Positions 3,599 through 63,093 of a DNA stretch of 64,000 nt are shown here, one piece after another. The notes under the pieces are model-generated. The model worked only from the letters and a program-made list of their open reading frames with translations. It did not search any database and was not told the origin of the DNA. Positions within the stretch are counted from its first letter, which is position 1; each line of letters begins with the position of its first letter. A program made the translations under genes and the position numbers. Source of the stretch: Elusimicrobiota bacterium (GTDB taxonomy: Bacteria > Elusimicrobiota > UBA8919); assembly GCA_003452965.1 (NCBI GenBank), contig DMMW01000084.1, positions 20-64,019 of the forward strand, in the 5' to 3' direction.

Positions 3599-4386
3599 AA
3601 AATCTTTCAAACTATTTTAATGTTGCAAAAAGTGCTGTTTTTAGTTCAGGGGAAATACTGAAAAAATACTTTTATGGTAATTTTAGGGTTGACTATAAAA
3701 GTGAGAGAAATCCTGTTACGACCGCAGATAAGAAATCCGAGAACAATATTAAGAGGATTTTAAGTGATAATTTTTCTAATATAGGTTTTTTATGTGAAGA
3801 AAGCTGTGACTTAGGAGTAGTCAATGAAAATGAATTGATGTGGATTTTGGACCCGCTAGACGGAACGGTCAATTTTGTACATAGATTACCTGTTTTTTCA
3901 ATTTCACTTGCACTCTACAATGGCAAGGAAGGTTTGTTGGGAATTGTTTATAATCCTATTAGCGGCGAATTTTTTTCTGCAATAAAAAATAAAGGCGCCT
4001 ATCTTAATAATAAAAGAATAGAAGTTTCTAATATAAATAATATTGAGCATTCACTATTGGTAACCGGTTTTCCATACGATTATAAGAAAAAAGAGAAGAA
4101 GGTATTAGGAAATTTCAAAAAATTTGTTTATCATGCGGAAGGTATAAGGCGGTTTGGTTCTGCTGCAATTGATTTGTGTTACGTGGCTTCAGGCCGTTTT
4201 GAAGGTTTTTGGGAAGAAGGATTAAAACCTTGGGATGTGGCTGCCGGTGCGGTTGTTTTGAAGGAATCTGGGGGAAAAATCTCGGATTATAAAGGTACGG
4301 AAGAATATTTATATAGCGGTAATCTTATAGCATCAAATTCAAAAATCCATAAAAAGATGTTTAATATTATCTGGAGGAAAGTATGA
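3595..4386 (+). CDS. inositol monophosphatase family protein (SuhB-like)
   Basis: WILDPLDGTVNF and WDVAAGAVVLKESGG motifs. Confidence 0.85.
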   Translation: MKNLSNYFNVAKSAVFSSGEILKKYFYGNFRVDYKSERNPVTTADKKSENNIKRILSDNFSNIGFLCEESCDLGVVNENELMWILDPLDGTVNFVHRLPVFSISLALYNGKEGLLGIVYNPISGEFFSAIKNKGAYLNNKRIEVSNINNIEHSLLVTGFPYDYKKKEKKVLGNFKKFVYHAEGIRRFGSAAIDLCYVASGRFEGFWEEGLKPWDVAAGAVVLKESGGKISDYKGTEEYLYSGNLIASNSKIHKKMFNIIWRKV

Positions 4387-5435
4387 TTTGCCCAAGTTGC
4401 GGTAATGTTTCCGAACAAAACGATAAGTATTGCAATCGGTGCGGTTTGGTTGTAAGCGTTAAAACACAAAAACTATTTGATAGCGTCGGTACATTGAGTT
4501 GGATTATGCGCCGTGCTTTAGGCGGTATGTTTGCAGGTATTATCGGATGGATACTTTCTATTGCATTGAGCCGTACTATAGGTTCTTCATCATCTATGAT
4601 TGTTCATTTGGTTGTAGGCGGAGCAATCGGTGGAGCGTTTTTAGGAAATGTGGGCGGCATTATTGAGCATTCGTCATATAAGGCATTCTTGGGTGGTATA
4701 TTGGGTTGTATAGGTGGTATATTGGGCGGTTTAATAAATAGACCTCTATATGATTATTTTTCTGCACATACTATGGCATATTCAATATCGCATTCTTTTT
4801 CTTGGTCTATTGCCGGGCTTTTTATCGGTGCTACAAGCGGTCTTATAGAAAAGAATATTAATAAAGTAATAGTAGGGGTGGTAGCCGGTTTTATAGGCGG
4901 AGCAATCGGCGGCGGTTTGGGTTCCGGTTTGTATGTATCTTTGGTGCTGGACATTAGTCGTCCTAATTGGATTACTGCAAGATTTGTTGAAGCGATTGCC
5001 GGTGCAGTTGTTGGAATGAATTTATGGTTCGTATTAGGGCTTGTAGAGAAAATATACATTTTTGACCGAAAGCAATTACGTGATGAGACCGAGAAAATTT
5101 GTGATTTTTGTAACGCACATAATTCGTTAAAAGCTTGGTATTGTAAAAACTGCGGCAAGGCGCTTCAGGTTTCAGCTTCCGTTGAAAAGCTTAAGATTAC
5201 GCCGTATAGGTCACTTGAAAGGATTGCAAATGCATTTAAATTTATTTCATGGCTATCCGCTGTTGCAGGAGTAGTGCTTGTTATAATAATATTCATTTTT
5301 TTATTATTTAAAAATCCGTTTTTTGCAGTATTTGTGTCTATAGCACTGGCTATTTTGGTTTATATAATTTCTGTTTTACTTAACGGGACTTCAGAAGTTA
5401 TTACTAAATTTATAAAATTAAGGGAATTGGAGTAA
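4383..5435 (+). CDS. membrane protein with N- and C-terminal zinc ribbons and glycine-zipper TM helices
   Basis: CPSCG..CNRCG at the N-terminus, CDFCNAHN..CKNCG near the C-terminus, several GxxxG-rich hydrophobic segments. Confidence 0.55.
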   Translation: MICPSCGNVSEQNDKYCNRCGLVVSVKTQKLFDSVGTLSWIMRRALGGMFAGIIGWILSIALSRTIGSSSSMIVHLVVGGAIGGAFLGNVGGIIEHSSYKAFLGGILGCIGGILGGLINRPLYDYFSAHTMAYSISHSFSWSIAGLFIGATSGLIEKNINKVIVGVVAGFIGGAIGGGLGSGLYVSLVLDISRPNWITARFVEAIAGAVVGMNLWFVLGLVEKIYIFDRKQLRDETEKICDFCNAHNSLKAWYCKNCGKALQVSASVEKLKITPYRSLERIANAFKFISWLSAVAGVVLVIIIFIFLLFKNPFFAVFVSIALAILVYIISVLLNGTSEVITKFIKLRELE

Positions 5436-5516
5436 AGGGTTATAGAGTTTTAGAGTTCGTAGAGTTTATAGGGTTAAAAATCCCGTAAACGATTATTTAA
5501 TAGGGAGAATAAGGTT

Positions 5517-6942: not shown

Positions 6943-8121
6943 ATGAATTTTAGTAAAATAGTGTTAGTATGCATACAAAGTATTATTATTTTTGTTCCGA
7001 TAATATATTTTATTTTACCCGATAACGGTCATATAATAAGCAAAGTTTTATTCGGGATTTTAGGTATTTTGCTGTTTGTTATGTTATTTTTAAAAGTATA
7101 TTTGAAAAAAATATGGATGCAGAACGCCTACCTTAAAATTCCTCTTTTTCTATATTTATTTACGATACTTATTTCAGTTAAAAACTCCGGAAATGTTAAA
7201 TTGGTGTTTGAATCTGCATTGTTTTTTTTGATATTGATGCTTATCTACTATGTAGTTCTTTTATTTTCTGAAAAAGAACGGTCATCGCTAATAAATGCTT
7301 TTATTGTTTCAGCCGCTGTAATAACATGTTTTGCTTTTTCACAATATTTGAGTATCAACTTTTTTAAGTGGTTGCCGAATTTTATTATTGATTTTAATAT
7401 TAATAATTATTCAGGCTTTTTTTTATTAATGTTTCCGATTATTTTTATTATGATGATACAAACAAGAGGAATATTAAAGCATGTTTTTTTGATGCTATTC
7501 TGTTTTGTTATATGTATCAATTTAATTGTCACAAAAATATGCAGCGTATGGGTTATTTTTCTGGTATCTATGCTTTTATTGGTATATGGACAGGTTATTT
7601 ATCTGAAAAGAAAATTTAGTACAATTAAAAGAATATCAAGAGGCAGCTACTGGATATCACTCATGGTTTTTGCCATATTGCTTTTTTCTATAGATAAATA
7701 CGGTACATTGAAAAAATATATCTGTAGAGATGATGTATTGGTAAATAATAGCGTAACATATTTTATGGCAGCTTGGCAGACAGTGAAAGAGTTCCCTGTT
7801 TTTGGAATCGGTGCGGGCAGTACTCCTAAGTATAATAGCGGAATTTTTATCAAGCATTTTATTGAGACAGGTTTATTGGGGTTAGCGATATATGTCTTGA
7901 TATTTATCCGTTATTTTTATATTTGTATAAGCGGTTTTTTAAAAAACATTGATTTTAAAGAAAGTGATTTTAATATGCTTTTTGGAATATTCATTGGAAT
8001 TACCTCGTTTTTCTTGCATACTTTAACAATTTACTCATTTTTTGCATTCCCAGTGTATATTATTCTTTTTGTTTTTCTCGGTCTTTCCGAATCCTATCTA
8101 AAGAATAGTGCGATAGTGTGA
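6943..8121 (+). CDS. polytopic membrane protein, O-antigen ligase/polymerase (Wzy_C)-like
   Basis: About 10 or more predicted TM segments with the large loop typical of the O-antigen ligase family; weak call. Confidence 0.5.
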   Translation: MNFSKIVLVCIQSIIIFVPIIYFILPDNGHIISKVLFGILGILLFVMLFLKVYLKKIWMQNAYLKIPLFLYLFTILISVKNSGNVKLVFESALFFLILMLIYYVVLLFSEKERSSLINAFIVSAAVITCFAFSQYLSINFFKWLPNFIIDFNINNYSGFFLLMFPIIFIMMIQTRGILKHVFLMLFCFVICINLIVTKICSVWVIFLVSMLLLVYGQVIYLKRKFSTIKRISRGSYWISLMVFAILLFSIDKYGTLKKYICRDDVLVNNSVTYFMAAWQTVKEFPVFGIGAGSTPKYNSGIFIKHFIETGLLGLAIYVLIFIRYFYICISGFLKNIDFKESDFNMLFGIFIGITSFFLHTLTIYSFFAFPVYIILFVFLGLSESYLKNSAIV

Positions 8122-8200
8122 TAGTGCCTGCCCGCCCCCACCACTGAAACGTTGGCGGGCAAGAAAGGTTTAGTGGCGGGCGATAGTGTGTCCGCCGTCC
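8110..8200. repeat. GC-rich hairpin element (MITE/REP-like) flanked by an 11-bp direct repeat GCGATAGTGTG
   Basis: GCGATAGTGTG at 8110-8120 and 8180-8190 flanks CCCACCACTGAAAC...GTTTAGTGGCGGG inverted arms; related copies at 39590-39650 and 45165-45225 (inverted). Confidence 0.6.
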
Positions 8201-17047: not shown

Positions 17048-17542
17048 ATGGCAATAATGCAAATTAAAAAATATCCAGAAGAAATACTCAGAAAAAAAAC
17101 CGATGAAATAACAAAAATTAACGGGGATATACTTAAATTGGCTAAAGATATGCTTGAGACAATGTATTTTTTCAGCGGGGTGGGTTTGGCGGCTAACCAG
17201 GTTGGCATATCAAAAAGTATTTTTGTGTCGGACATTAAGCCTGAAGGAAAAAAAAATCCGATAATAGTCATAAATCCCAGAATTACATCTTCAAAAGGTG
17301 GTGTTTATTCAGAGGAAGGTTGTTTATCGCTTCCCGGAATAGCGGCGGAAGTCAAACGCTCTAAAACAATAAGATTGCTCGGACTTAATACGGCAGGCAA
17401 AGAGATAGATCTTGAAGTTGAGGGATTGTTGGCTAGGATATTCCAACATGAAATAGACCATCTTAACGGCAACGTATTTATTGACAGAATCAATCCGTTG
17501 AAGAGGTGGAGACTTAAGCGTGAATATTTTAAGAAAAAATGA
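17048..17542 (+). CDS. def: peptide deformylase
   Basis: GVGLAANQVG, EGCLSLPG and HEIDHLNG motifs. Confidence 0.92.
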   Translation: MAIMQIKKYPEEILRKKTDEITKINGDILKLAKDMLETMYFFSGVGLAANQVGISKSIFVSDIKPEGKKNPIIVINPRITSSKGGVYSEEGCLSLPGIAAEVKRSKTIRLLGLNTAGKEIDLEVEGLLARIFQHEIDHLNGNVFIDRINPLKRWRLKREYFKKK

Positions 17543-18492
17543 AAACGATTTTTTTTGGTACTCCCGAATATGTAAATCCGTTATTGGATTATTTAATAGA
17601 TAATGAAAATATTATCGCAGTGGTCACGAGATGTGATAAACCTGCAAAAAGACACCTCCAGTCGTTACCATCCGAAGTGAAACAGAACGCCATAAAAAAA
17701 CTGATTAGGGTATTTAGTGTTGAAAAAATTGATGATGCGGTTTTTATTTCAAACTTGTCCGCAATTAAACCGGATGTCGGTATAGTAGCGGCATTTGGAA
17801 AAATATTACCCAAAAAAGTGCTGGATATATTTTCTATCGGTTGTGTGAACCTTCATTTTTCGCTACTCCCGAAATATCGTGGTGCAGCCCCGATTCAGCG
17901 GGCGTTAATTGATGGAGAAACCGAAACTGGAGTTACCAGCTTTTGGATGAACGAGGGAATGGATACAGGCAGAATAATATTTCAGAAAAAAATTAACATA
18001 GATAAAAATGACGACACAAATACTCTTAGGGAAAAGCTTATTCCGGTTGCATTGGATGTTTTACGAGAGACTGTTGTAAAGATAAAGGAAAATTACAAAG
18101 GTGAAGAACAAGTCGGGAATCCGAGTTTTGCACCGCAGCTGAAAAAAGAAGACGGCAAGATAGACGTAGAAAAAACTGCAGAAACAATATTTAATTTGAT
18201 TCGTGGGACTAAACCTTGGCCGGGGGCATTTATCACAATTCACAATTCACAATTCACAATTCAAAACTTAAGAATACTTGATGCACAAATTATTCAGGAA
18301 CCGAATTATCCCTGTTCAGATTTGCTTCCTATCGGTTCCGTTGTAGCTTTGCATAAAAACATCGGTTTTGTATTAAAATGTGGGAAAGGTTATTTATTAA
18401 TCAAGTCCGTTCACCCCCCGTCAAAAAATGTTATGTCTGCATGGTCTTTTTTACAAGGACACAATCTTAAAATCGGCGATAAATTAGATTGA
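17539..18492 (+). CDS. fmt: methionyl-tRNA formyltransferase
   Basis: Formyl-transferase N-domain (HFSLLPKYRGAAPIQ) and C-terminal domain; contains a CACAATT x4 microsatellite at 18234-18261. Confidence 0.9.
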   Translation: MKTIFFGTPEYVNPLLDYLIDNENIIAVVTRCDKPAKRHLQSLPSEVKQNAIKKLIRVFSVEKIDDAVFISNLSAIKPDVGIVAAFGKILPKKVLDIFSIGCVNLHFSLLPKYRGAAPIQRALIDGETETGVTSFWMNEGMDTGRIIFQKKINIDKNDDTNTLREKLIPVALDVLRETVVKIKENYKGEEQVGNPSFAPQLKKEDGKIDVEKTAETIFNLIRGTKPWPGAFITIHNSQFTIQNLRILDAQIIQEPNYPCSDLLPIGSVVALHKNIGFVLKCGKGYLLIKSVHPPSKNVMSAWSFLQGHNLKIGDKLD

Positions 18493-20172: not shown

Positions 20173-20828
20173 GTATAGAGATTTCACCGTCAATATTATC
20201 TGCGGATTTTTCAAACTTAATATCTGATATCAGCGAATGTGAAAAAGAGAATATCGGTATTTTTCATATTGATGTAATGGATGGTCATTTCGTGCCCAAC
20301 ATAACAATAGGTTCTGTGGTAGTTGAATCAATAAGAAAAAAAACTAAATCTATCTTGGATACACATCTGATGATCGAAAATCCGGAGCGTTATGTAGAAG
20401 CGTTTGCAAAAGCGGGCAGCGACTGGATAACTTTCCATATTGAAACGACAAACAGTCCGTTAGGGATAATAAAAAAAATAAAAGATTTAAATGTAAAAGC
20501 CGGAATTTCATTAAATCCCGGAACCCCGATAGAAAAGATTAAACCGTATCTTGAAGATGTTTTTATGGTTATGGTAATGAGCGTCAATCCCGGTTTTGGC
20601 GGCCAGAAATTCATGCCAACAGTTTTATCAAAAGTAAGCCGGCTTAAGGAATGTAGGGGGAAACTTAAAAATAAATTTAAAATAGGTATTGATGGTGGAA
20701 TAAATTTTGATACGATATCCGAGGTTGTGAAAGCAGGTGCTGAATTGGTTGTGGCCGGTTCCGCAGTATTTAAAACCGAATTAGGGATTAGAAAAAGCAT
20801 AGAAAAACTAAGAGAATTATCAAAATAG
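20169..20828 (+). CDS. rpe: ribulose-phosphate 3-epimerase
   Basis: SILSADF, HIDVMDGHFVPN and MVMSVNPGFGGQKF motifs. Confidence 0.92.
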   Translation: MSIEISPSILSADFSNLISDISECEKENIGIFHIDVMDGHFVPNITIGSVVVESIRKKTKSILDTHLMIENPERYVEAFAKAGSDWITFHIETTNSPLGIIKKIKDLNVKAGISLNPGTPIEKIKPYLEDVFMVMVMSVNPGFGGQKFMPTVLSKVSRLKECRGKLKNKFKIGIDGGINFDTISEVVKAGAELVVAGSAVFKTELGIRKSIEKLRELSK

Positions 20829-20829
20829 T

Positions 20830-20871
20830 TCATCCGCCTACGCTCTATCGAGCTTCGGCGAGACAAGGGGG
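20830..20871 (-). repeat. partial inverted copy of the 114-bp dispersed repeat; its G-run forms the rpsP RBS
   Basis: Reverse complement matches CCCTTGTCTCGCCGAAGCTC.TA.GAGCGTAGGCGGA of the elements at 45231-45344 and 62627-62740. Confidence 0.6.
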
Positions 20872-29558: not shown

Positions 29559-29957
29559 ATGTATAAAAAACCGATTTTTGTGGTTCATAAACATTCAGCG
29601 AAACATTTGCATTATGATTTTCGGCTTGAACATAGCGGTGTTTTAAAGAGTTGGGCGATTCCAAAAGAACCTGTAAATGATTCAAAGATAAAGAGATTAG
29701 CGATATGGGTAGATGACCATCCTCTTGATTATGCAGATTTTTCAGGCATAATTCCCGAAGGCAAGTACGGTGCAGGAAAAGTTGAAATATGGGATAGGGG
29801 TGAATACACTCCGATAAAGTTTGAAGAAGACGAAGTAATTTTTAATCTTCAGGGAGAAAGATTAAAGGGAAATTTTTGTTTGCTTAAGTTGAAAAAAAAT
29901 AATACCAAAGGTAAAAATTGGCTGTTTTTTAAAATGCATCAAAAAGGCAGCGGATAG
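29559..29957 (+). CDS. stand-alone DNA ligase D 3'-phosphoesterase (PE) domain protein
   Basis: FVVHKHSAKHLHYDFRLE..LKSWAIPK..HPLDYADF..IPEGKYGAG.VEIWDRGEY matches the LigD PE domain signature end to end. Confidence 0.8.
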   Translation: MYKKPIFVVHKHSAKHLHYDFRLEHSGVLKSWAIPKEPVNDSKIKRLAIWVDDHPLDYADFSGIIPEGKYGAGKVEIWDRGEYTPIKFEEDEVIFNLQGERLKGNFCLLKLKKNNTKGKNWLFFKMHQKGSG

Positions 29958-30030
29958 CGTTCCGCCAGCTGGCGGGGAGGTTAGCGTATAGTGAAAAGAG
30001 ATAATAAAAATTAAATACTAACCTCTAACC
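29943..30030 (+). repeat. dispersed repeat with CCGCCAGCTGGCGG palindrome and GAGGTTAG/CTAACCTC inverted termini
   Basis: Near-identical inverted copy at 38741-38830; the first 25 bp also occur as a direct repeat at 29487-29515 on the other side of the PE gene. Confidence 0.65.
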
Positions 30031-31171: not shown

Positions 31172-31185
31172 AAAAGTTAATATAT

Positions 31186-31315
31186 ACGACCTCCGTGGTT
31201 TACCCCGATGGATCGGGGTTGTTTACTCGGTCGTTGCAGTAGCTACGACCTCCGTGGTTTACCCCGATGGATCGGGGTTGTTTACTCGGTCGTTGCAGTA
31301 GCTACGACCTCCGTG
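31186..31315. repeat. 59-bp GC-rich structured tandem repeat, 2.2 copies
   Basis: Unit ACGACCTCCGTGGTTTACCCCGATGGATCGGGGTTGTTTACTCGGTCGTTGCAGTAGCT starts at 31186, 31245 and 31304 (partial); nested stems ACGACC/GGTCGT and CCCCGAT/ATCGGGG. Confidence 0.85.
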
Positions 31316-37819: not shown

Positions 37820-37905
37820 CTCTTTAGGGTTATAGGGTTATAAACTCTAAAACTCTATGAACGCTATGAACGTTAAAACTATATAAACGCAATTGGAGGT
37901 AAAAA

Positions 37906-38740: not shown

Positions 38741-38830
38741 GTATAGAGATTAGAGGTTAGTATTTAATTTTTATTATCTCTTTTCAATATACGCTAACCT
38801 CTCCGCCAGCTGGCGGAACGCTATCCGCTG
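38741..38830 (-). repeat. inverted copy of the CCGCCAGCTGGCGG-containing dispersed repeat
   Basis: Reverse complement is about 95% identical to 29943-30030. Confidence 0.65.
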
Positions 38831-39505: not shown

Positions 39506-39570
39506 GTATACAGAGTATACAGAGTATACAGAGTATACAGAGTATACAGAGTATACACATAGTATACTTC
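39506..39570. repeat. tandem 9-mer (GTATACAGA) x6 microsatellite
   Basis: Direct reading of the sequence; degenerate 7th unit. Confidence 0.8.
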
Positions 39571-40518: not shown

Positions 40519-41076
40519 ATGGTTGGCCAGATTTTATTACAGACAGAAGATAAGATGAAAAAGACAATGGAGCATTTGAGGTTGGAATTGATGATGCTCA
40601 AAACCGGACGTGCCACTCCGACAATATTGGACATTGTAAAAGTAAGATATTATGATTCTGATTTGCCGGTTAATCAGGTGGCGAGTATTTCCATCCCTGA
40701 GCCACGGCTTATAGTTATAACGCCATGGGAAAAAGGGGTATTGCCTGAAATAGAAAAAGCAATACTTAAAGCAGACATCGGCATAACACCGCAAAACGAT
40801 GGTAAGGTAATAAGGCTTCCCATACCTGCCCTAACGGAGGAACGAAGAAAGGATATAATAAAAACAGCTAAAAAAATAACGGAAGACCATAAAGTTGAAA
40901 TGAGAAATGAGAGAAGGGATTCCCAAGAATTGATAAAGAAAAGTTTTAATGATAAAAAAATGACGGAAGATGAAAAATATAAGTTACAAGAAGAATTACA
41001 GAAAATGACAGAAAGTTATATAAAAAAGTTGGATGAAATGTTGTTAATCAAAGAAAAAGAGATAATGACAGTATAA
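40519..41076 (+). CDS. frr: ribosome recycling factor
   Basis: Characteristic RRF length and composition; conserved position after pyrH. Confidence 0.9.
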   Translation: MVGQILLQTEDKMKKTMEHLRLELMMLKTGRATPTILDIVKVRYYDSDLPVNQVASISIPEPRLIVITPWEKGVLPEIEKAILKADIGITPQNDGKVIRLPIPALTEERRKDIIKTAKKITEDHKVEMRNERRDSQELIKKSFNDKKMTEDEKYKLQEELQKMTESYIKKLDEMLLIKEKEIMTV

Positions 41077-41078
41077 TA

Positions 41079-41165
41079 GAGGCAAGTATAAATATAAAGT
41101 TAAAATTAAAATAAAAATAGAATAGAGGCAAGTATAAATATAAAGTTAAAATTAAAATTAAAACC
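41079..41165. repeat. AT-rich direct repeat of about 37 bp x2 plus inverted AT-rich arm
   Basis: ATAGAGGCAAGTATAAATATAAAGTTAAAATTAAAAT at 41079 and 41127; downstream TTAATTTTAACTTT is complementary. Confidence 0.6.
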
Positions 41166-41222
41166 AAGAAACAAAGACTTAATTTTAACTTTAAACCTTT
41201 AACTTTTAACTTGATTTTTTAA

Positions 41223-45164: not shown

Positions 45165-45225
45165 TATTTACCCGCCAATGGTTCCTTGTCCGCCAATGCT
45201 TTAGTGGTGGAAGTGGTGGGCACAG
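45165..45225 (-). repeat. GC-rich hairpin element, inverted copy of the 8127-8200 family
   Basis: Reverse complement reads CCACCACTAAAGCATTGGCGGACAAG, cf. CCACCACTGAAACGTTGGCGGGCAAG at 8138. Confidence 0.55.
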
Positions 45226-45230
45226 ATTAT

Positions 45231-45344
45231 GGAACCCCGTAGAACGGGGTTGTAGCCTTGTTCGGTGCGGTAGGTCCCTTGTCTCGCCGAAGCTCATAAG
45301 AGCGTAGGCGGACGAACTTCGTGTACAAGATTACACAGATTAAG
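45231..45344 (+). repeat. 114-bp dispersed repeat, copy 1
   Basis: About 97% identical to 62627-62740; begins GGAACCCCGTAGAACGGGG and ends ATTACACAGATTAAG. Confidence 0.85.
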
Positions 45345-45473: not shown

Positions 45474-46565
45474 ATGAATATAATAGGTAAAATAACAGGT
45501 ATAAAATATAAAGTAATTCTATCTGAGAACTTAAAGAAAGTTGACATCAAAAATTTTGACATCAACGAAGCACCTTCGTCTTGTGTTATTACAGATAATA
45601 AACATTCTTTTGCTATTTCAAAGTGGGTTTCACCCAAGCGGACACGTTCATATCCATTTGAACGAGTTTTTAACACGCTCAACATTTCAAGGAAAATTAC
45701 TGTTATACCAATCGTAAAAGATGAAGGAGCAAAAGGAGACAGGGATTTCATACAGTGGGACACAGTTTCTTTAATGTCGTTGTTAGACGTGTTTGTAATT
45801 TTTGCTTATTACATAAAAGCGGAAAAAGTAAACCGAAAAATAACCAACCAACAATTTGACAACAAATATGTTCTCTCTAAAATTAAAGAAATTAAACAAT
45901 ATCACAGTTCGGCATTACATTGGAATTTAAACGAAATCAACACTAACTTGCATAACATCATTAACAAAGTAAAATCTTTCTACGCAAAAATTGAAAAATC
46001 AACAAACGTAAAACTTCACGGTTCGAAGGGTACTGGAAATTTTCAAAATAAAATTGGAAAAGATGTTTCATTATTTATGGCATTTTCTAGAGGGAAAGCA
46101 GAAAGAGCTCAATCAATAGAATTTGTAACCCGTCAACCTAAGGAAAGTTTATCGACACTCTCAAAAGCAAAAATTACCATTACAAACTATTTGGGTGGAC
46201 AGTATTTTTTTACTGTAGATGAGATACTTATTACGAAAGAAAAAGTAAGTTTAATAGAAAGTAAACACAGTAAAAATGTAACACTTCCGAGTAAAAGCGA
46301 CATCAAAGATGGTTTGCTGAAAATGATTTTGTATTGCAACTTAACGGATGTAACAGTAAACGGAATAAAAATTAAATGTGAAGCTGTTTTATGTTTGACA
46401 TCTTCAAAACTTAAAGGAGGAATTTCATCCTTCAGTACTAAAAGTGAACTTTCAACGTTTTTTGCGAAAAATAATCTTTCAGAATCACAAATTTTTCTAA
46501 TTGAAACGGTAATAGCAGAAGCGAAACAAAATAAGTTTATAATTAAGGTAAAATATTCAAAATGA
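45474..46565 (+). CDS. putative type II restriction endonuclease (unrecognised family)
   Basis: 363-aa ORF translationally coupled (ATGA overlap) to a Dam-family MTase; candidate PD-(D/E)xK-like residues in TVDEILITKEKVSLIESKHS. Confidence 0.45.
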   Translation: MNIIGKITGIKYKVILSENLKKVDIKNFDINEAPSSCVITDNKHSFAISKWVSPKRTRSYPFERVFNTLNISRKITVIPIVKDEGAKGDRDFIQWDTVSLMSLLDVFVIFAYYIKAEKVNRKITNQQFDNKYVLSKIKEIKQYHSSALHWNLNEINTNLHNIINKVKSFYAKIEKSTNVKLHGSKGTGNFQNKIGKDVSLFMAFSRGKAERAQSIEFVTRQPKESLSTLSKAKITITNYLGGQYFFTVDEILITKEKVSLIESKHSKNVTLPSKSDIKDGLLKMILYCNLTDVTVNGIKIKCEAVLCLTSSKLKGGISSFSTKSELSTFFAKNNLSESQIFLIETVIAEAKQNKFIIKVKYSK

Positions 46566-47491
46566 TAAAAAGCCCACTAAGATATCCTGGAGGCAAAAGT
46601 AGAGCTGTTAAATTGATATCAACTCTTTTGCCAGAATTTGACGAATTTAGAGAACCATTTTTAGGTGGTGGTTCTCTTTTTATTTATGTTAAACAACGAT
46701 TTCCTAATAAGAAATATTGGATTAACGACCTCTATTTAGAACTTTTTAAATTTTGGGAAATGGCACAAAAAGATGTCGATACTTTGATTGACAATATTTA
46801 TGAATGGCGAAATAAATATCCAGTTGGAAAAGAGTTACATAAATTTTTAAATAATAATTTAGAGGGGTTTAACGATTTGGAGAGGGCTGCAGCATTTTTT
46901 ATCTACAATCGTATAACATTTTCAGGAACAAGTTTAAGTGGTGGTTTTAGTGAAGGTGCTTTTACGGGACGTTTTACAAAAAGCAGTATTCAACGACTTA
47001 ACCAATTTGCTAAAGTAATTAATGGCTCAACTATCACTAATCTTGACTACGAAGAATTAGTAAAACAAGAAGGCGAAAATGTATTTATCTTTCTTGATCC
47101 ACCGTATTTTTCTGCGACAAAATCCGCACTATATGGAAAGAATGGGAATATGCATAAGTCGTTTGACCATAAAAAATTTGCAGAAATAATGCGAAATTGC
47201 AAACATAAATGGCTCATAACTTATGATGACAGTGAATATATAAGAGAGCTTTTCTCATTTGCTAACATCATTCCTTGGGATTTAACTTATGGAATGCGGA
47301 ACGTAACCAAGGGTTCAAACCAGAAAGGAAAAGAACTTTTTATATCAAACTATTTAAAACAACTTCCCAGAAAACAACAGATGACTTTATTTGAGCCGAA
47401 AGTGAAATATGTAGCTAAAAAAGAATCATATCACATTTCGTCACCAAGTAAAAAGAGGAATATACATAAAAGTAAAAGAAACGGGTTTTAA
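46562..47491 (+). CDS. N6-adenine DNA methyltransferase, D12 class (Dam family)
   Basis: PLRYPGGKSR N-terminus, FxGxG motif (EPFLGGGSLF), catalytic DPPY (IFLDPPYF). Confidence 0.85.
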   Translation: MIKSPLRYPGGKSRAVKLISTLLPEFDEFREPFLGGGSLFIYVKQRFPNKKYWINDLYLELFKFWEMAQKDVDTLIDNIYEWRNKYPVGKELHKFLNNNLEGFNDLERAAAFFIYNRITFSGTSLSGGFSEGAFTGRFTKSSIQRLNQFAKVINGSTITNLDYEELVKQEGENVFIFLDPPYFSATKSALYGKNGNMHKSFDHKKFAEIMRNCKHKWLITYDDSEYIRELFSFANIIPWDLTYGMRNVTKGSNQKGKELFISNYLKQLPRKQQMTLFEPKVKYVAKKESYHISSPSKKRNIHKSKRNGF

Positions 47492-47706
47492 TTTTTGAAA
47501 CATAACACACAACTGTTATCTTTGTAAGTTTGATTTTTCCACTTTTCATCAGAAGTTTTTATGGAGGATTGGAAACAATAAGTTGCTATTATCTTCTCAA
47601 GTCGGAATCTTATTAAGTAAAGAGATAAAGAGGTAGTTGATAGATTGGTTATCAATGCACAATCGCACAATCCCACTATCACGCTATATCACGAATTTTT
47701 AGTATT

Positions 47707-48858
47707 ATGAAGACAAAGAAAGTTAGAATAGGAAATATATATATAGGTGGTGGTGAGCCTGTCCGTGTTCAGTCAATGACAAAGACAAAAACGGCAGACT
47801 GGAAATCCACTGTTAATCAAATAAGAAAACTGCAGGTCTTGGGTTGTGAGATTATCCGTGTTGCAGTTCCCGATATGAATTCTGCAAAAGTTCTTTCAAA
47901 AATAAAAAAAAACATAAAAATTCCTTTGGTTGCAGATATTCATTTTGATTGGCGGTTAGCGGTTGAAGCGATAAATCAAGGTGTTGATAAAATAAGGATT
48001 AATCCAGGCAATATCGGTTCCCGGGAAAATGTAGAGAAAATCATAATTGCTGCAAAAAAAAAGAAAGTAGCCATCCGTGTAGGTGTAAATGCAGGTTCTT
48101 TAAAAATTCTTAAAAAGTCTGACAGTTGGACGAAGATGTCTACTAAAGAACGTGCTTATCAGATGGTAAAGGAATTACTGGAAAATATTAAAATTATTGA
48201 AGAAATGAATTTTTCCGATATAGTAGTATCATTAAAAGCAAACGATGTTCCGACAACAATTCTGGCAAACGAATTGTACTCAAAAAGAAGAAAATATCCG
48301 ATTCATTTGGGTATTACAGAAGCAGGCACGGAGTTTTCCGGCATCATAAAGTCAGCGGCAGCATTCGGAGTCCTGCTTAATCAAGGGATAGGTGATACTA
48401 TAAGAGTCTCTTTGACCGCTTTGCCGGACGAAGAAATAAAAACCGGGTGGGAAATTTTGAAAACACTTGGTTTAAGAAAAAGAGGGATAGAAATTATTTC
48501 CTGTCCAACTTGTGGCAGATGTCAAACAGATTTAATTAAAATCGTCCATCAGTTAGAAAAACAAATTACAAATTATCCGCCCCGAATCCGCCAGCTGGCG
48601 GATGGGGCGAGACCTCGCCAAAGGTTCAGTGGTGGGCAAATTACAAATTCGCCACTGAAAGTTGCCGTCATGGGTTGTGTCGTAAACGGCCCAGGAGAGG
48701 CAAGAGATGCTGATATAGGAATTGCCGGCGGAAAAGGATTCGGTTTGCTTTTTAAAAAAGGTAAAGTAATAAAGAAAATACCTCAAAATAAATGGGTCGT
48801 TGAAATAATAAAAGAGATTAAAAACAGTCAGTATAAATCAGTTTTAGAATCTGTTTAA
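47707..48858 (+). CDS. ispG: 4-hydroxy-3-methylbut-2-enyl diphosphate synthase (IspG/GcpE)
   Basis: TIM-barrel N-domain; 4Fe-4S Cys motifs CPTCGRC and GCVVNGPGE; carries a repeat-derived insert of about 25 aa between them. Confidence 0.9.
   Translation: MKTKKVRIGNIYIGGGEPVRVQSMTKTKTADWKSTVNQIRKLQVLGCEIIRVAVPDMNSAKVLSKIKKNIKIPLVADIHFDWRLAVEAINQGVDKIRINPGNIGSRENVEKIIIAAKKKKVAIRVGVNAGSLKILKKSDSWTKMSTKERAYQMVKELLENIKIIEEMNFSDIVVSLKANDVPTTILANELYSKRRKYPIHLGITEAGTEFSGIIKSAAAFGVLLNQGIGDTIRVSLTALPDEEIKTGWEILKTLGLRKRGIEIISCPTCGRCQTDLIKIVHQLEKQITNYPPRIRQLADGARPRQRFSGGQITNSPLKVAVMGCVVNGPGEARDADIGIAGGKGFGLLFKKGKVIKKIPQNKWVVEIIKEIKNSQYKSVLESV
48576..48665 (+). repeat. GC-rich palindromic repeat inserted in frame inside ispG
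   Basis: Contains CCGCCAGCTGGCGG and the TTCAGTGGTGGG...CGCCACTGAAA hairpin shared with intergenic repeats; encodes YPPRIRQLADGARPRQRFSGGQITN. Confidence 0.7.
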
Positions 48859-54163: not shown

Positions 54164-54297
54164 TTGTTAAAAAACAATCAATGATTGCACAGATGAACAA
54201 CAAGATTACACAGATTAGAGCATGTAGTTAAATATTTGTAATTGTCTTTAAAAATCTGTGTAATCGCTTTTTGAAATCTGTGTAATCTGGAGTTCAA

Positions 54298-55389
54298 ATG
54301 AAATTTAAGATTATTGATAATCAGCAAACTATGCCTGCAAACATAAAAGTTATCGGTGTCGGTGGCGGCGGAAGTAACGCTGTTAATTTGATGGTAGTTT
54401 CAAATATAAAAGGTGTACAGTTCATAGCTGCTAATACCGATTCCGATGCATTAAAAAAATCTATTGCGGAACATAAAATCCAATTAGGACCGAAGTTGAC
54501 CAAGGGTCAGGGGTCAGGTGCTAAACCCGAAATTGGCAAGCAAGCAACTGAAGAGAGCGCTTCAACTGTAGAACAGATATTGCTCGGAACCGACATGTTG
54601 TTTATTACAGCTGGTATGGGCGGCGGCACAGGCACCGGCGGGGCTCCAGTAGTTGCAAAAGTTGCAAAATCTTTGGGTATACTTACGGTTGGTATAGTTA
54701 CAAAGCCGTTTATGTGGGAAGGCAAAGTTAAAATGGCCATAGCTGAGGAAGGTATAAAAGAACTCAAAGCGTATACGGATGCTCTTATTGAAATACCGAA
54801 TCAAAGATTATTTTCTATAATAGACGAAGATACGCTTGCAACACAGACATTTGAAAAGGCTAATGAAGTCCTTAAAAAAGCTGTACAGTCAATATCCGAT
54901 GTTATTACTTCCCATGGTATGATAAATGTTGATTTTCAAGATGTAAAAACGATAATGAGCAATACCGGTGATGCATTACTCGGTTTTGGTGAAGCATCCG
55001 GTGAAGACAGGGCGATGGTTGCAACAAAGATGGCTATTACAAGTCCGTTATTGGAAGATATAAGTATTGACGGGGCAAAGGGAGTATTGGTCAATATCAC
55101 CGGTAATAGTCAGGATTTAAAAATGTCTGAGATAGATACCGCAATGTCGATAATCCACAGTGCAGTTTCACCTGAGGCGCATCTGATATATGGGCAGGTA
55201 TATGATGATGAATTAGATAATAAATTTAAAATAACGGTTATAGCAACAGGATTTTTGGGCGATAAGAAACTGATTAAACAGAAAAGGGCGGAGTATACGG
55301 AAGAAAAAAAGGTAAATAGTTTTTTACCGGATAAAGAGAATCTTGAAATACCAGCTTATAAAAGAATAAAAGTGCGTAAGTTGAGATAG
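54298..55389 (+). CDS. ftsZ: cell division GTPase FtsZ
   Basis: GVGGGGSNAVN tubulin signature and GGGTGTG. Confidence 0.95.
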   Translation: MKFKIIDNQQTMPANIKVIGVGGGGSNAVNLMVVSNIKGVQFIAANTDSDALKKSIAEHKIQLGPKLTKGQGSGAKPEIGKQATEESASTVEQILLGTDMLFITAGMGGGTGTGGAPVVAKVAKSLGILTVGIVTKPFMWEGKVKMAIAEEGIKELKAYTDALIEIPNQRLFSIIDEDTLATQTFEKANEVLKKAVQSISDVITSHGMINVDFQDVKTIMSNTGDALLGFGEASGEDRAMVATKMAITSPLLEDISIDGAKGVLVNITGNSQDLKMSEIDTAMSIIHSAVSPEAHLIYGQVYDDELDNKFKITVIATGFLGDKKLIKQKRAEYTEEKKVNSFLPDKENLEIPAYKRIKVRKLR

Positions 55390-55497
55390 GATTTTTTAAA
55401 GAGAAGCAATGTAAAATGTAAAATTAAAAATGAAAAATGGATGAATAAAATCTTAATTTTGAATTTTTAATTTTTAATTGTTTTTAAAGGAGTATTT

Positions 55498-62626: not shown

Positions 62627-62740
62627 CACGGATTGGGGAACCCCGTAGAACGGGGATGTAGCCTTGTTCGGTGTGGTAGGTCCCTTGTCTCGCCGAAGCT
62701 CATAAGAGCGTAGGCGGACGAACTTCGTGTACAAAATTAC
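62627..62740 (+). repeat. 114-bp dispersed repeat, copy 2
   Basis: About 97% identical to 45231-45344; preceded by TGATTACACGGATT and ends AATTACACAGATTAAG. Confidence 0.85.
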
Positions 62741-63093
62741 ACAGATTAAGGCAAGACGTCAAGACCATTTGAGTTTTTTTTGATAGTCTCAAAGTGAAAA
62801 ATGTTGATTATTACAAAAAATTTTCAAAAACAGTAGAAAAAGATTTTTAATATTATAAGGTTATTGAAAAATCTCGTCAAGATGTCATTCCTGCAAAAGT
62901 AGGAATCTATACTCAGACATGAATGGATTCCCAATAATAATGTTCGGGAATGATGGCAAGGGATTTTTAACGACAAATTTGAAAATGATGATGCTTTTTT
63001 ATAATTCATTTCCAATCAGTCGGACACTGTCTGGACAATCTAAAAAAGATAAGGAAATTGTAATTGGTTGGAAATATTGACAAAATTATATAA

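Follow-up and report, generated by a model that had tools for sequence, protein, structure and literature searches.

How does GC-rich, palindromic DNA come to lie within the reading frame of an essential enzyme in an AT-rich genome? The question is raised by ispG in a 64,000-nt stretch of DNA from an Elusimicrobiota bacterium (contig DMMW01000084.1 of assembly GCA_003452965.1), referred to below as the window. Between the codons for C269 and C324 of IspG, two ligands of its iron–sulfur cluster, the gene carries 61 nt composed of two hairpin modules, one with a perfect 16-nt palindrome (P) at its apex and the other termed M. The P-hairpin and the M-hairpin are members of repeat families dispersed between the genes of this AT-rich Elusimicrobia lineage, and the insert is probably non-coding repeat DNA, selfish or neutral, that settled in a permissive IspG loop and has since been translated.

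The host gene is intact. Its product matches the Pfam families GcpE (PF04551) and GcpE_C (PF26540), which identifies it as IspG/GcpE, and both of its domains match Aquifex IspG (PDB 3NOY, E = 9e-97); the ligands C266, C269, C324 and E331 are invariant in an alignment of 34 IspG sequences. The nearest named genome is RIFOXYD2_FULL_34_15, with an IspG identity of 78%. Against this background the insert stands out by composition (68.9% GC, as compared with 35.7% in the remainder of ispG and 33.7% in the window), and the in-frame GC-rich insertion reported in the initial annotation is indeed present within a single open reading frame (ORF). The annotation had it run over about 75–90 nt, from 48576 to 48665; the start and the GC-richness hold, and the insert itself ends at 48636. 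It is flanked by two copies of a 13-nt direct repeat, CAAATTACAAATT, identical at 13/13 positions (blastn-short) and 75 nt apart, that is 25 codons, so that the frame is preserved; Tandem Repeats Finder assigns the left flank a period of 7. The insert contains no stop codon in any of the three forward frames, so only its length needed to fit. The extra length amounts to 25 residues by repeat spacing, as first proposed, and to 23 or 18 residues when Aquifex IspG or the closest orthologues serve as reference. The encoded peptide is strongly basic (pI ~11.8).

Both modules fold. The 14-nt core of P is CCGCCAGCTGGCGG (48588-48601), and the stem of M (CGCCA/TGGTG) is nearly that of P (CCGCCA/TGGCGG). 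The region as a whole is predicted to form two strong hairpins, as RNA (-43.8 kcal/mol, z = -4.6) and as DNA (-24 kcal/mol, z = -4.3). The second of these, which the initial annotation had ascribed to the insert, is recovered in both folds with an amendment: its 3′ arm, CGCCACTGAA (48650-48659), is native sequence that codes for S-P-L-K and is present in orthologues too, and the flanking heptamers make up the loop.

The insert is real, stably inherited and confined to one species. Ten contigs, from at least six assemblies (JGI, ENA and Logan; different samples), code for the same 383-residue protein, and the insert DNA is identical in all six of those contigs whose DNA was compared. In a second strain (locus L081), whose ispG has 98.7% nucleotide identity, the insert is kept with one substitution, CAG to CGG (Q to R), at the palindrome centre. 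Among the 120 best IspG homologues listed, the segment is found solely in a same-species variant (protein P0001, 98% identical), and the next relatives (69–82% identity, 357–367 residues) do not have it; lineage-specificity, for which the initial annotation proposed an orthologue alignment, is thus borne out, and no homologous peptide stands at this position in any other IspG of that set. A phmmer search with the 30-residue insert peptide gave no match in 1.84 billion representative proteins, a weak negative given the short query and the use of one representative per 50% cluster. Palindromes may be generated by library or assembly artefacts, and an assembly chimera or contaminating adapter was considered on that ground. 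It can be given practically no weight: the segment recurs on the 10 contigs, from independent projects and assemblers, the diverged strain holds a point-mutated copy, and alleles of another gene with and without P come from JGI, ENA and NCBI, one copy being apparently decayed by point mutation. The artefact reading was dropped on the 10-contig recurrence and the diverged copy.

The insertion site is, by sequence comparison, a variable loop. In the Aquifex alignment, query residues 2-288 correspond to chain residues 15-296 and query residues 314-375 to chain residues 299-360, leaving the 25 residues 289-313 opposite a two-residue turn. The loop follows the CxxC helix and precedes the strand bearing the third cluster cysteine. 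An AlphaFold2 model built from the 34-row alignment (mean predicted local distance difference test score, pLDDT, 73.5) gives residues 291-315 a pLDDT below 50, between a confident helix (276-288) and a confident strand (318-322). Among the 120 homologues the stretch ahead of the third cluster cysteine varies from 26 to 49 residues. The initial annotation had proposed a check for a surface loop at this site; judging from the model, the loop is probably exposed, and the 18–25 added residues would form a disordered, basic surface loop that the enzyme tolerates.

The modules of the insert recur in the window. The 14-nt core of P occurs exactly at 29962 and 38803, and with up to two mismatches there are four matches against 0.01 expected. 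The two exact copies lie within a repeat, R1, whose copies are 97.5% identical, inverted and 8.7 kb apart, each directly past a stop codon; besides P they contain another stem, GAGGTTAG...CTAACCTC, whose loop is AT-rich. The motif TYAGTGGYGG of M occurs exactly five times (8138 on the minus strand, 8170, 45201, 48626 and 61247; 0.14 expected). Aligned copies of M (8128-8166 on the minus strand, 8155-8195, 45185-45230 and two in the related contig L181) give the consensus CCGCCAAnGnTTYAGTGGYGG. In L181 (36% GC), P and M lie at most 150 nt apart within an intergenic heptamer array, and hairpin 1 matches a terminator-like hairpin of the unrelated contig L189 at 26 of 27 aligned positions, with one gap. 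The similarity to intergenic repeats originally asserted for the insert therefore holds for its modules P and M, which align, and not for the insert as a whole. Coordinates are collected in Table 1.

Table 1. Features of ispG, its insert and related repeats in the window (positions refer to the window).
Feature	Position	Strand	Description
ispG (GcpE)	47707-48858	+	single uninterrupted ORF, 383 codons / 383 aa, intact
C266 codon	48502-48504	+	cluster ligand
C269 codon	48511-48513	+	cluster ligand
C324 codon	48676-48678	+	cluster ligand
E331 codon	48697-48699	+	cluster ligand
Left flank	48562-48575	+	two CAAATTA heptamer units; upstream copy of CAAATTACAAATT at 48562-48574
GC-rich insert	48576-48636	+	61 nt, 68.9% GC; two hairpin modules linked by AGAC
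Hairpin 1 (module 1)	48578-48609	+	32 nt, CGCCCC-GA-ATCCGCC-AGCT-GGCGGAT-GGGGCG; predicted in RNA and DNA folds
P	48587-48602		perfect 16-nt palindrome TCCGCCAGCTGGCGGA, apex of hairpin 1; translated I-R-Q-L-A-D
M (module 2)	48613-48636	+	CCTCGCCAAAGGTTCAGTGGTGGG; stem CGCCA/TGGTG, 9-nt loop AAGGTTCAG
Hairpin 2	48625-48659	+	inserted arm TTCAGTGGTGGG pairs with native arm TTCGCCACTGAA; heptamers form the loop
Right flank	48637-48649	+	downstream copy of CAAATTACAAATT
R1 copy a	29948-30028	+	intergenic, 81 nt; P at 29961-29975
R1 copy b	38750-38830	-	intergenic; P at 38802-38817
Inverted M pair	8128-8185		intergenic, within octamer array (GATAGTGN)n
M-type module	45185-45225	+	intergenic, nested CCGCCAAT...AGTGGTGG
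Spacer array	5439-5467		
Spacer array	8105-8127		
Spacer array	37825-37888		
Spacer array	39506-39567		
Spacer array	41075-41212		
Spacer array	47653-47680		
Spacer array	54173-54299		
Spacer array	55408-55479		

The site that received the insert has a history of its own. In all low-GC relatives some four heptamers in tandem code for the loop, the unit being lineage-specific and nearly uniform within an array: CTTTTAA in L001, CTACTCA in L002, CTTTTCA in L003, CTCGCTA in L004, CCTTTAA in L005 and CTCTCAA in L208 and L209, with a perfect (CTCTCAA)x4 in L209. Where the window has its insert, the closest orthologues have a 10-residue segment derived from such an array, and arrays are also found at the ispG loop of the Omnitrophota-titled loci L062 and L075 and of L068. 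Since orthologous arrays occupy the same place, the 13-nt repeat flanking the insert, two CAAATTA units on each side, is read as the two parts of a split array: from these comparisons, it is more likely that the GC-rich piece split an older array than that the repeat is a target duplication. A 7-nt period within an essential coding region, homogenised in each lineage, is odd, and implies either that arrays turn over three units at a time or that they were replaced repeatedly.

A second ispG has received P alone. In L208 (Elusimicrobia metagenome-assembled genome GCA_016928195.1), TCCGCCGGCTGGCGGA lies inside the array and is read as SAGWR, in a frame different from that of the window. The IspG proteins of L208 and L209 are 75% identical and differ by a clean four-residue gap exactly at P. 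As P is present in one and absent from the other, the ispG loop would have gained P at least twice, or have lost it precisely elsewhere.

Structure at the nucleic acid level is a further property of this loop. Array-bearing ispG genes form a hairpin over the codons for x-P-L-K-V-A-V, with stems that vary by lineage. It was scored over the 33 nt up to the Met codon preceding the third cluster cysteine (48648-48680 in the window). In seven of 13 array-bearing loci, the window and L081 included, z lies between about -2.2 and -4.9, with values of about -1 in two more, whereas it stays near zero (-0.9 to +1.3) in 18 IspG genes without arrays. The seven stable hairpins (L001, L002, L005, L208, L209, L062 and L068) have energies of -5.9 to -15 kcal/mol. 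Examples of their stems are CGGCAACT/AGTTGCCG, GCCACT/AGTGGC and TGCGACCT/AGGTCGCA; the stem of L068, CCGCCA/TGGCGG, is identical to the P and M stem. In the window the native loop hairpin is degenerate and the inserted arm yields a longer replacement hairpin. Structure at the ispG loop may thus have a role at the nucleic acid level.

Heptamer arrays are not confined to ispG. The window gene for methionyl-tRNA formyltransferase (fmt, 17539-18492) contains a perfect in-frame (TCACAAT)x4.4 at 18233-18263, which codes for ITIHNSQFTIQ and is the second heptamer array within a housekeeping gene of the window. Many intergenic spacers hold short tandem arrays with a period of 7–9 nt (some longer), often right before the next gene; examples are given in Table 1.

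How far P extends beyond this genome was surveyed with the pattern TCCGCCAGCTGGCGGRKRGG, which matched at least 120 metagenomic stretches; the counts of P sites below refer to the matches listed. Of 129 distinct sites, 98 are in loci below 50% GC, where chance matches to a 75%-GC palindrome should be rare. In 16 additional copies that were not selected by the pattern, the flanking T and A are kept in 14 and positions farther out vary, so that the repeat unit is the 16-mer. Carrier contigs have about one P per 20–40 kb. P can be part of an extended palindrome with locus-specific outer arms, flanked by runs of A and T as in intrinsic terminators. It is also found in structural RNAs: in L183 (2110-2493, minus strand) as the P3 stem-loop of an RNase P RNA of class A, and in L173 (2019-2096, minus strand) within the D-arm of a predicted tRNA-Cys of 78 nt. 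Two further loci, L178 (~1500-1624) and L201 (~1640-1888), contain a partial duplicate of the 5′ half of tRNA-Cys, in which P replaces the D-loop, directly upstream of the intact tRNA. Five contigs (L097, L102, L164, L169 and L099) share a conserved stretch of ~90 nt, gcgttaggga..agcgg.aaccccgca-P-gagagg..agc..cccgaccc..gggaacgcccaaaag, which resembles a structured RNA and has no Rfam match at gathering score.

Low-GC contigs also have P in housekeeping proteins of Patescibacteria, within loops or linkers. Of 138 P copies, 58 lie within open frames of at least 150 codons. P is found in inter-domain linkers (MetRS, trigger factor and two family 4 glycosyltransferases, GT4), close to domain ends (MurD and RecO) and in C-terminal tails, for example that of DnaK. 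Elsewhere the loops that contain it correspond to gaps in solved homologues, as a clean six-residue insertion in the CCA-adding enzyme, a three-residue insertion in NDH-2 and a variable loop in AlaRS. From protein to protein, P is translated in one or another of the three frames, and all three are used. The proline/glycine-rich frame PPAGG is used in 19 of 28 long ORFs, as compared with 13 of 41 short ORFs, a bias that would be the expected outcome of selection filtering random insertions. In L185 (34% GC), paralogous GT4 genes (822-1928 and 3744-5063, both on the minus strand) each contain P in the same frame, as RQLAD, in the equivalent inter-domain linker; one of these copies lies inside a (CAAATCC)n array, which resembles the CAAATTA unit of the window.

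The CCA-adding enzyme offers a second site of recurrent change. The copy on L177 is from Patescibacteria, its named relatives being Candidatus Nealsonbacteria. At a hot spot after the motif RAVRF..L (L177 6959-7080, L210, L211, L212 and proteins P0121-P0240), 109 of the 120 closest homologues could be scored: some have no P (LGFEIE or LGEGWKIE), others have P read as PPAGG, and others P read as SASWR. Further alleles are SAAGG, in which P has apparently decayed by point mutation, and unrelated inserts such as ERCSSLSEPCDSKARWE. By these sequences, P occurs in at least two phyla, Elusimicrobiota and Patescibacteria. Orthologous P sites show a net change in size of +12 or +18 nt. Direct repeats of at least 9 nt are enriched around P, at seven of the 129 sites against five of 2580 shuffled pairs; they belong to tandem arrays or to local repeats of short length, and their distance from P varies, and a fixed-length target duplication next to P was found at none of the 129 sites.

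Two vehicles for such a distribution were tried and set aside. The 16-mer occurs on 55 viral contigs, mostly of at least 50% GC and thus chance-like, with no more than a few low-GC instances that resemble those in bacteria; a phage vector was therefore rejected. Known DNA-uptake signals are far denser than one copy per 20–40 kb, and a role as an uptake sequence was discarded on that comparison. A search of open-access papers and bioRxiv turned up no description of the palindrome, nor of such elements in Elusimicrobia or Patescibacteria. Tentatively, and with somewhat less than even confidence, TCCGCCAGCTGGCGGA could be regarded as the core of an undescribed, tiny palindromic insertion module shared across phyla, which lands in apical hairpins, heptamer arrays and protein loops or linkers, has hot spots in the ispG loop and at the CCA site, and spreads without a fixed duplication or a nearby transposase; the ispG insert would be one nested product of it.

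For ispG itself, the reading as lodged repeat DNA implies that a GC-rich repeat entered the pre-existing heptamer array with a length that kept the frame. The favoured routes would be transfer from an intergenic repeat, through ectopic recombination or repair-mediated copying, or else mobilisation in trans by an enzyme that recognises hairpins. Classical cut-and-paste transposition is less likely, since other P junctions have no fixed duplication and the net changes there are +12 to +18 nt. The insert would have no function of its own and would persist because clean removal is rare and its cost presumably small. Several observations weigh against this account. No transposase family accompanies P (when the 1481 ORFs of 120 P-bearing loci were clustered all against all, housekeeping families alone emerged, and the window ORFs were screened in part), and the P sites examined have neither terminal inverted repeats nor a consistent target duplication. 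The 64-kb window contains no full-length second copy of the 61-nt unit, only recurring modules of 16–25 nt; with no matching peptide either, this weakens the case for a ready-made composite that inserted in a single event. That the enzyme works with the enlarged loop is inferred solely from the integrity and conservation of the gene. Orthologues hold a hairpin at the same spot, with sequences that differ between lineages, and the M arm is complementary to the adjoining native sequence, which could mean a local inverted duplication.

This last point leads to an origin in situ, in which slippage and template switching within the heptamer array made an inverted copy of the native neighbour and duplicated the heptamers, nothing being imported. 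Just downstream of the inserted arm TTCAGTGGTGGG lies its native complement CGCCACTGAA, and the duplicated heptamers form the loop between the two; the genome is rich in 7–9-nt tandem arrays, including those in frame in ispG orthologues and fmt, and hairpins beside arrays recur among orthologues. Such an origin is nevertheless unlikely, because the GC-rich 32-nt hairpin 1 has no local template, a stretch of 69% GC could not be copied from surroundings of 36% GC, and the same P and M sequences stand at unlinked intergenic sites in this and other genomes. A gain of function is likewise improbable, be it through an RNA or DNA hairpin that delays translation or transcription ahead of the third cysteine ligand or through a basic protein loop that changes how the electron donor docks. 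It would accommodate the contrast in hairpin stability between array-bearing and array-less genes, the restored hairpin in the window, retention of the insert in two strains and the high pI of the peptide. Conservation is however limited to one species, the sole substitution between strains (Q to R) falls at the palindrome centre, the loop is predicted to be disordered, and the occurrence of the same palindrome in many unrelated proteins and RNAs, in differing frames, argues against a role specific to IspG. Very improbable, finally, is an intervening sequence of 75 nt that is skipped by bypassing between identical flanking codons for Q-I-T-N, or excised between the 13-nt repeats, as in the mitochondrial ‘byp’ clusters and phage T4 gene 60. 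The identical flanks do offer identical take-off and landing codons around GC-rich hairpins, and a GC cluster in an AT-rich genome parallels the Magnusiomyces case (PMC8811140); yet the segment is in frame and stop-free, so that bypassing is unneeded, no stop follows the would-be take-off codon, and bypassing is not known from bacteria of this kind.

Among known systems, the nearest bacterial precedent for the lodged repeat is provided by intragenic repetitive extragenic palindromic sequences (REPs). The GTAG/CGTC REPs of Di Nocera et al. 2013 are small GC-rich hairpins located mainly downstream of genes; a minority are intragenic, in dimers or groups that encode 20–30 residues, and were argued to be neutral and situated in linkers or loops (PMC3733652). 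The ispG insert is comparable in that it consists of two grouped hairpin units coding for ~20–25 residues, and its units (hairpin 1 of 32 nt and M of ~24 nt, both folding) fall within the 20–40 bp of a REP stem-loop. It differs in several respects: the GTAG/CGTC motif is absent in or beside the insert, and flanks beyond the 16-mer vary over the 129 P sites, P is a perfect and almost loopless 16-nt palindrome, no REP-associated tyrosine transposase (RAYT), which in the GTAG type is flanked by the repeats, or other transposase was seen near P (in the 120 clustered loci and the part of the window ORFs screened), and the same 16-mer is shared by two phyla and by structural RNAs. Lacking the tag, P and M are not assigned to the tagged REP super-families.

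The initial annotation had likened the insert to Rickettsia palindromic elements (RPEs), and the likeness lies in behaviour rather than membership. RPEs, in the passages of PMC10969869 that recount Ogata et al. 2000 and 2002, are of ~100–150 bp, encode a conserved peptide and are restricted to Rickettsia; according to the same passages, they lie in frame in unrelated housekeeping genes of an AT-rich genome, at fold-compatible positions and without inactivation. The ispG insert is similarly in frame and tolerated, in a housekeeping gene and at a fold-compatible site. It is shorter (61 nt, or 75 nt with one flanking repeat), built of modules of 16–25 nt, and without a peptide in a fixed frame, P being read as RQLA in the window ispG, SAGWR in the L208 ispG, and PPAGG or SASWR in the CCA enzyme. 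The host being one of the Elusimicrobia, membership is not expected.

Parallels outside bacteria concern behaviour only. The GC clusters of yeast mitochondria are short GC-rich palindromes of AT-rich genomes, mostly intergenic and transcribed; they include optional in-frame insertions in var1, have short terminal repeats and tandem arrays, merge into composites, and end in AG or TAG repeats that are interpreted as target duplications (PMC8811140). The ispG insert likewise consists of GC-rich palindromes in an AT-rich genome, both intergenic and in frame. GC clusters differ in their organellar, eukaryotic and thus unrelated hosts and have no sequence relationship with P, which has no constant flanking duplication. 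Neurospora mitochondria have GC-rich palindromes (the subject of Yin et al. 1981), reportedly of 18 nt and built on PstI sites; P, with its restriction-site-like core CAGCTG, may be comparable, and the host is again organellar. MITEs, the miniature inverted-repeat class of transposable elements, resemble the insert as non-autonomous, structured, dispersed units that are sometimes fused in frame to host ORFs, and they differ from it in that the insert has no clear terminal inverted repeats, fixed duplication or parent insertion sequence; P is also far smaller. In cyanobacteria, HIP1 is an 8-nt GC-rich palindrome that also occurs in coding regions; it is about a hundred-fold more frequent than P, which has 16 nt. 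On its own, the ispG insert adds one more case to a behaviour already known, the in-frame tolerance of palindromic repeats. It is set apart from the described families by the tiny unit, the absence of a tag or fixed duplication, the occurrence of one 16-mer in structural RNAs and across two phyla, the ispG hot spot and the link to heptamer arrays.

The window contains further GC-rich repeats and marks of strain divergence. A dispersed repeat of 114 nt occurs with 97% identity at 45231-45344 and 62637-62750, with a 43-nt partial copy at 20827-20869 (minus strand), and a 59-nt unit is repeated in 2.2 tandem copies of 100% identity at 31185-31315. Both families have CCCCG...CGGGG hairpins and neither matches Rfam; the possibility that the GC-rich islands are known RNAs was discarded, as the window has no Rfam match at gathering thresholds. 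Every long ORF of the window lies on the plus strand. Upstream of ispG, 45474-47491 (a 363-aa ORF and a Dam-like methyltransferase, PF02086) is missing in L081, where positions 1-543 hold unrelated sequence. The window and L081 diverge by 1.3% in ispG and by 0.3% over the following 9 kb, which, together with the replaced upstream genes, suggests that recombination had a breakpoint at the 5′ end of the gene. The strain differences in ispG (eight non-synonymous and seven synonymous) cluster by this breakpoint and are uninformative on selection.

For the biology of IspG, these data mean that the loop before the third iron–sulfur ligand of an essential enzyme can take 18–25 disordered residues, and is thus a naturally permissive site that might be exploited to tag or engineer the enzyme. 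The link between palindromes and in-frame heptamer arrays suggests that slippage, template switching or repeated insertion shape protein loops in these lineages. In-frame colonisation of proteins by palindromes, known earlier from Rickettsia RPEs, intragenic REPs and mitochondrial GC clusters, is extended to free-living, uncultivated bacteria with small genomes. Should P prove to be mobile, it would rank with the smallest known DNA units that propagate themselves, and would serve as a marker of recent insertion as well as being a source of misannotation in metagenome-assembled genomes.

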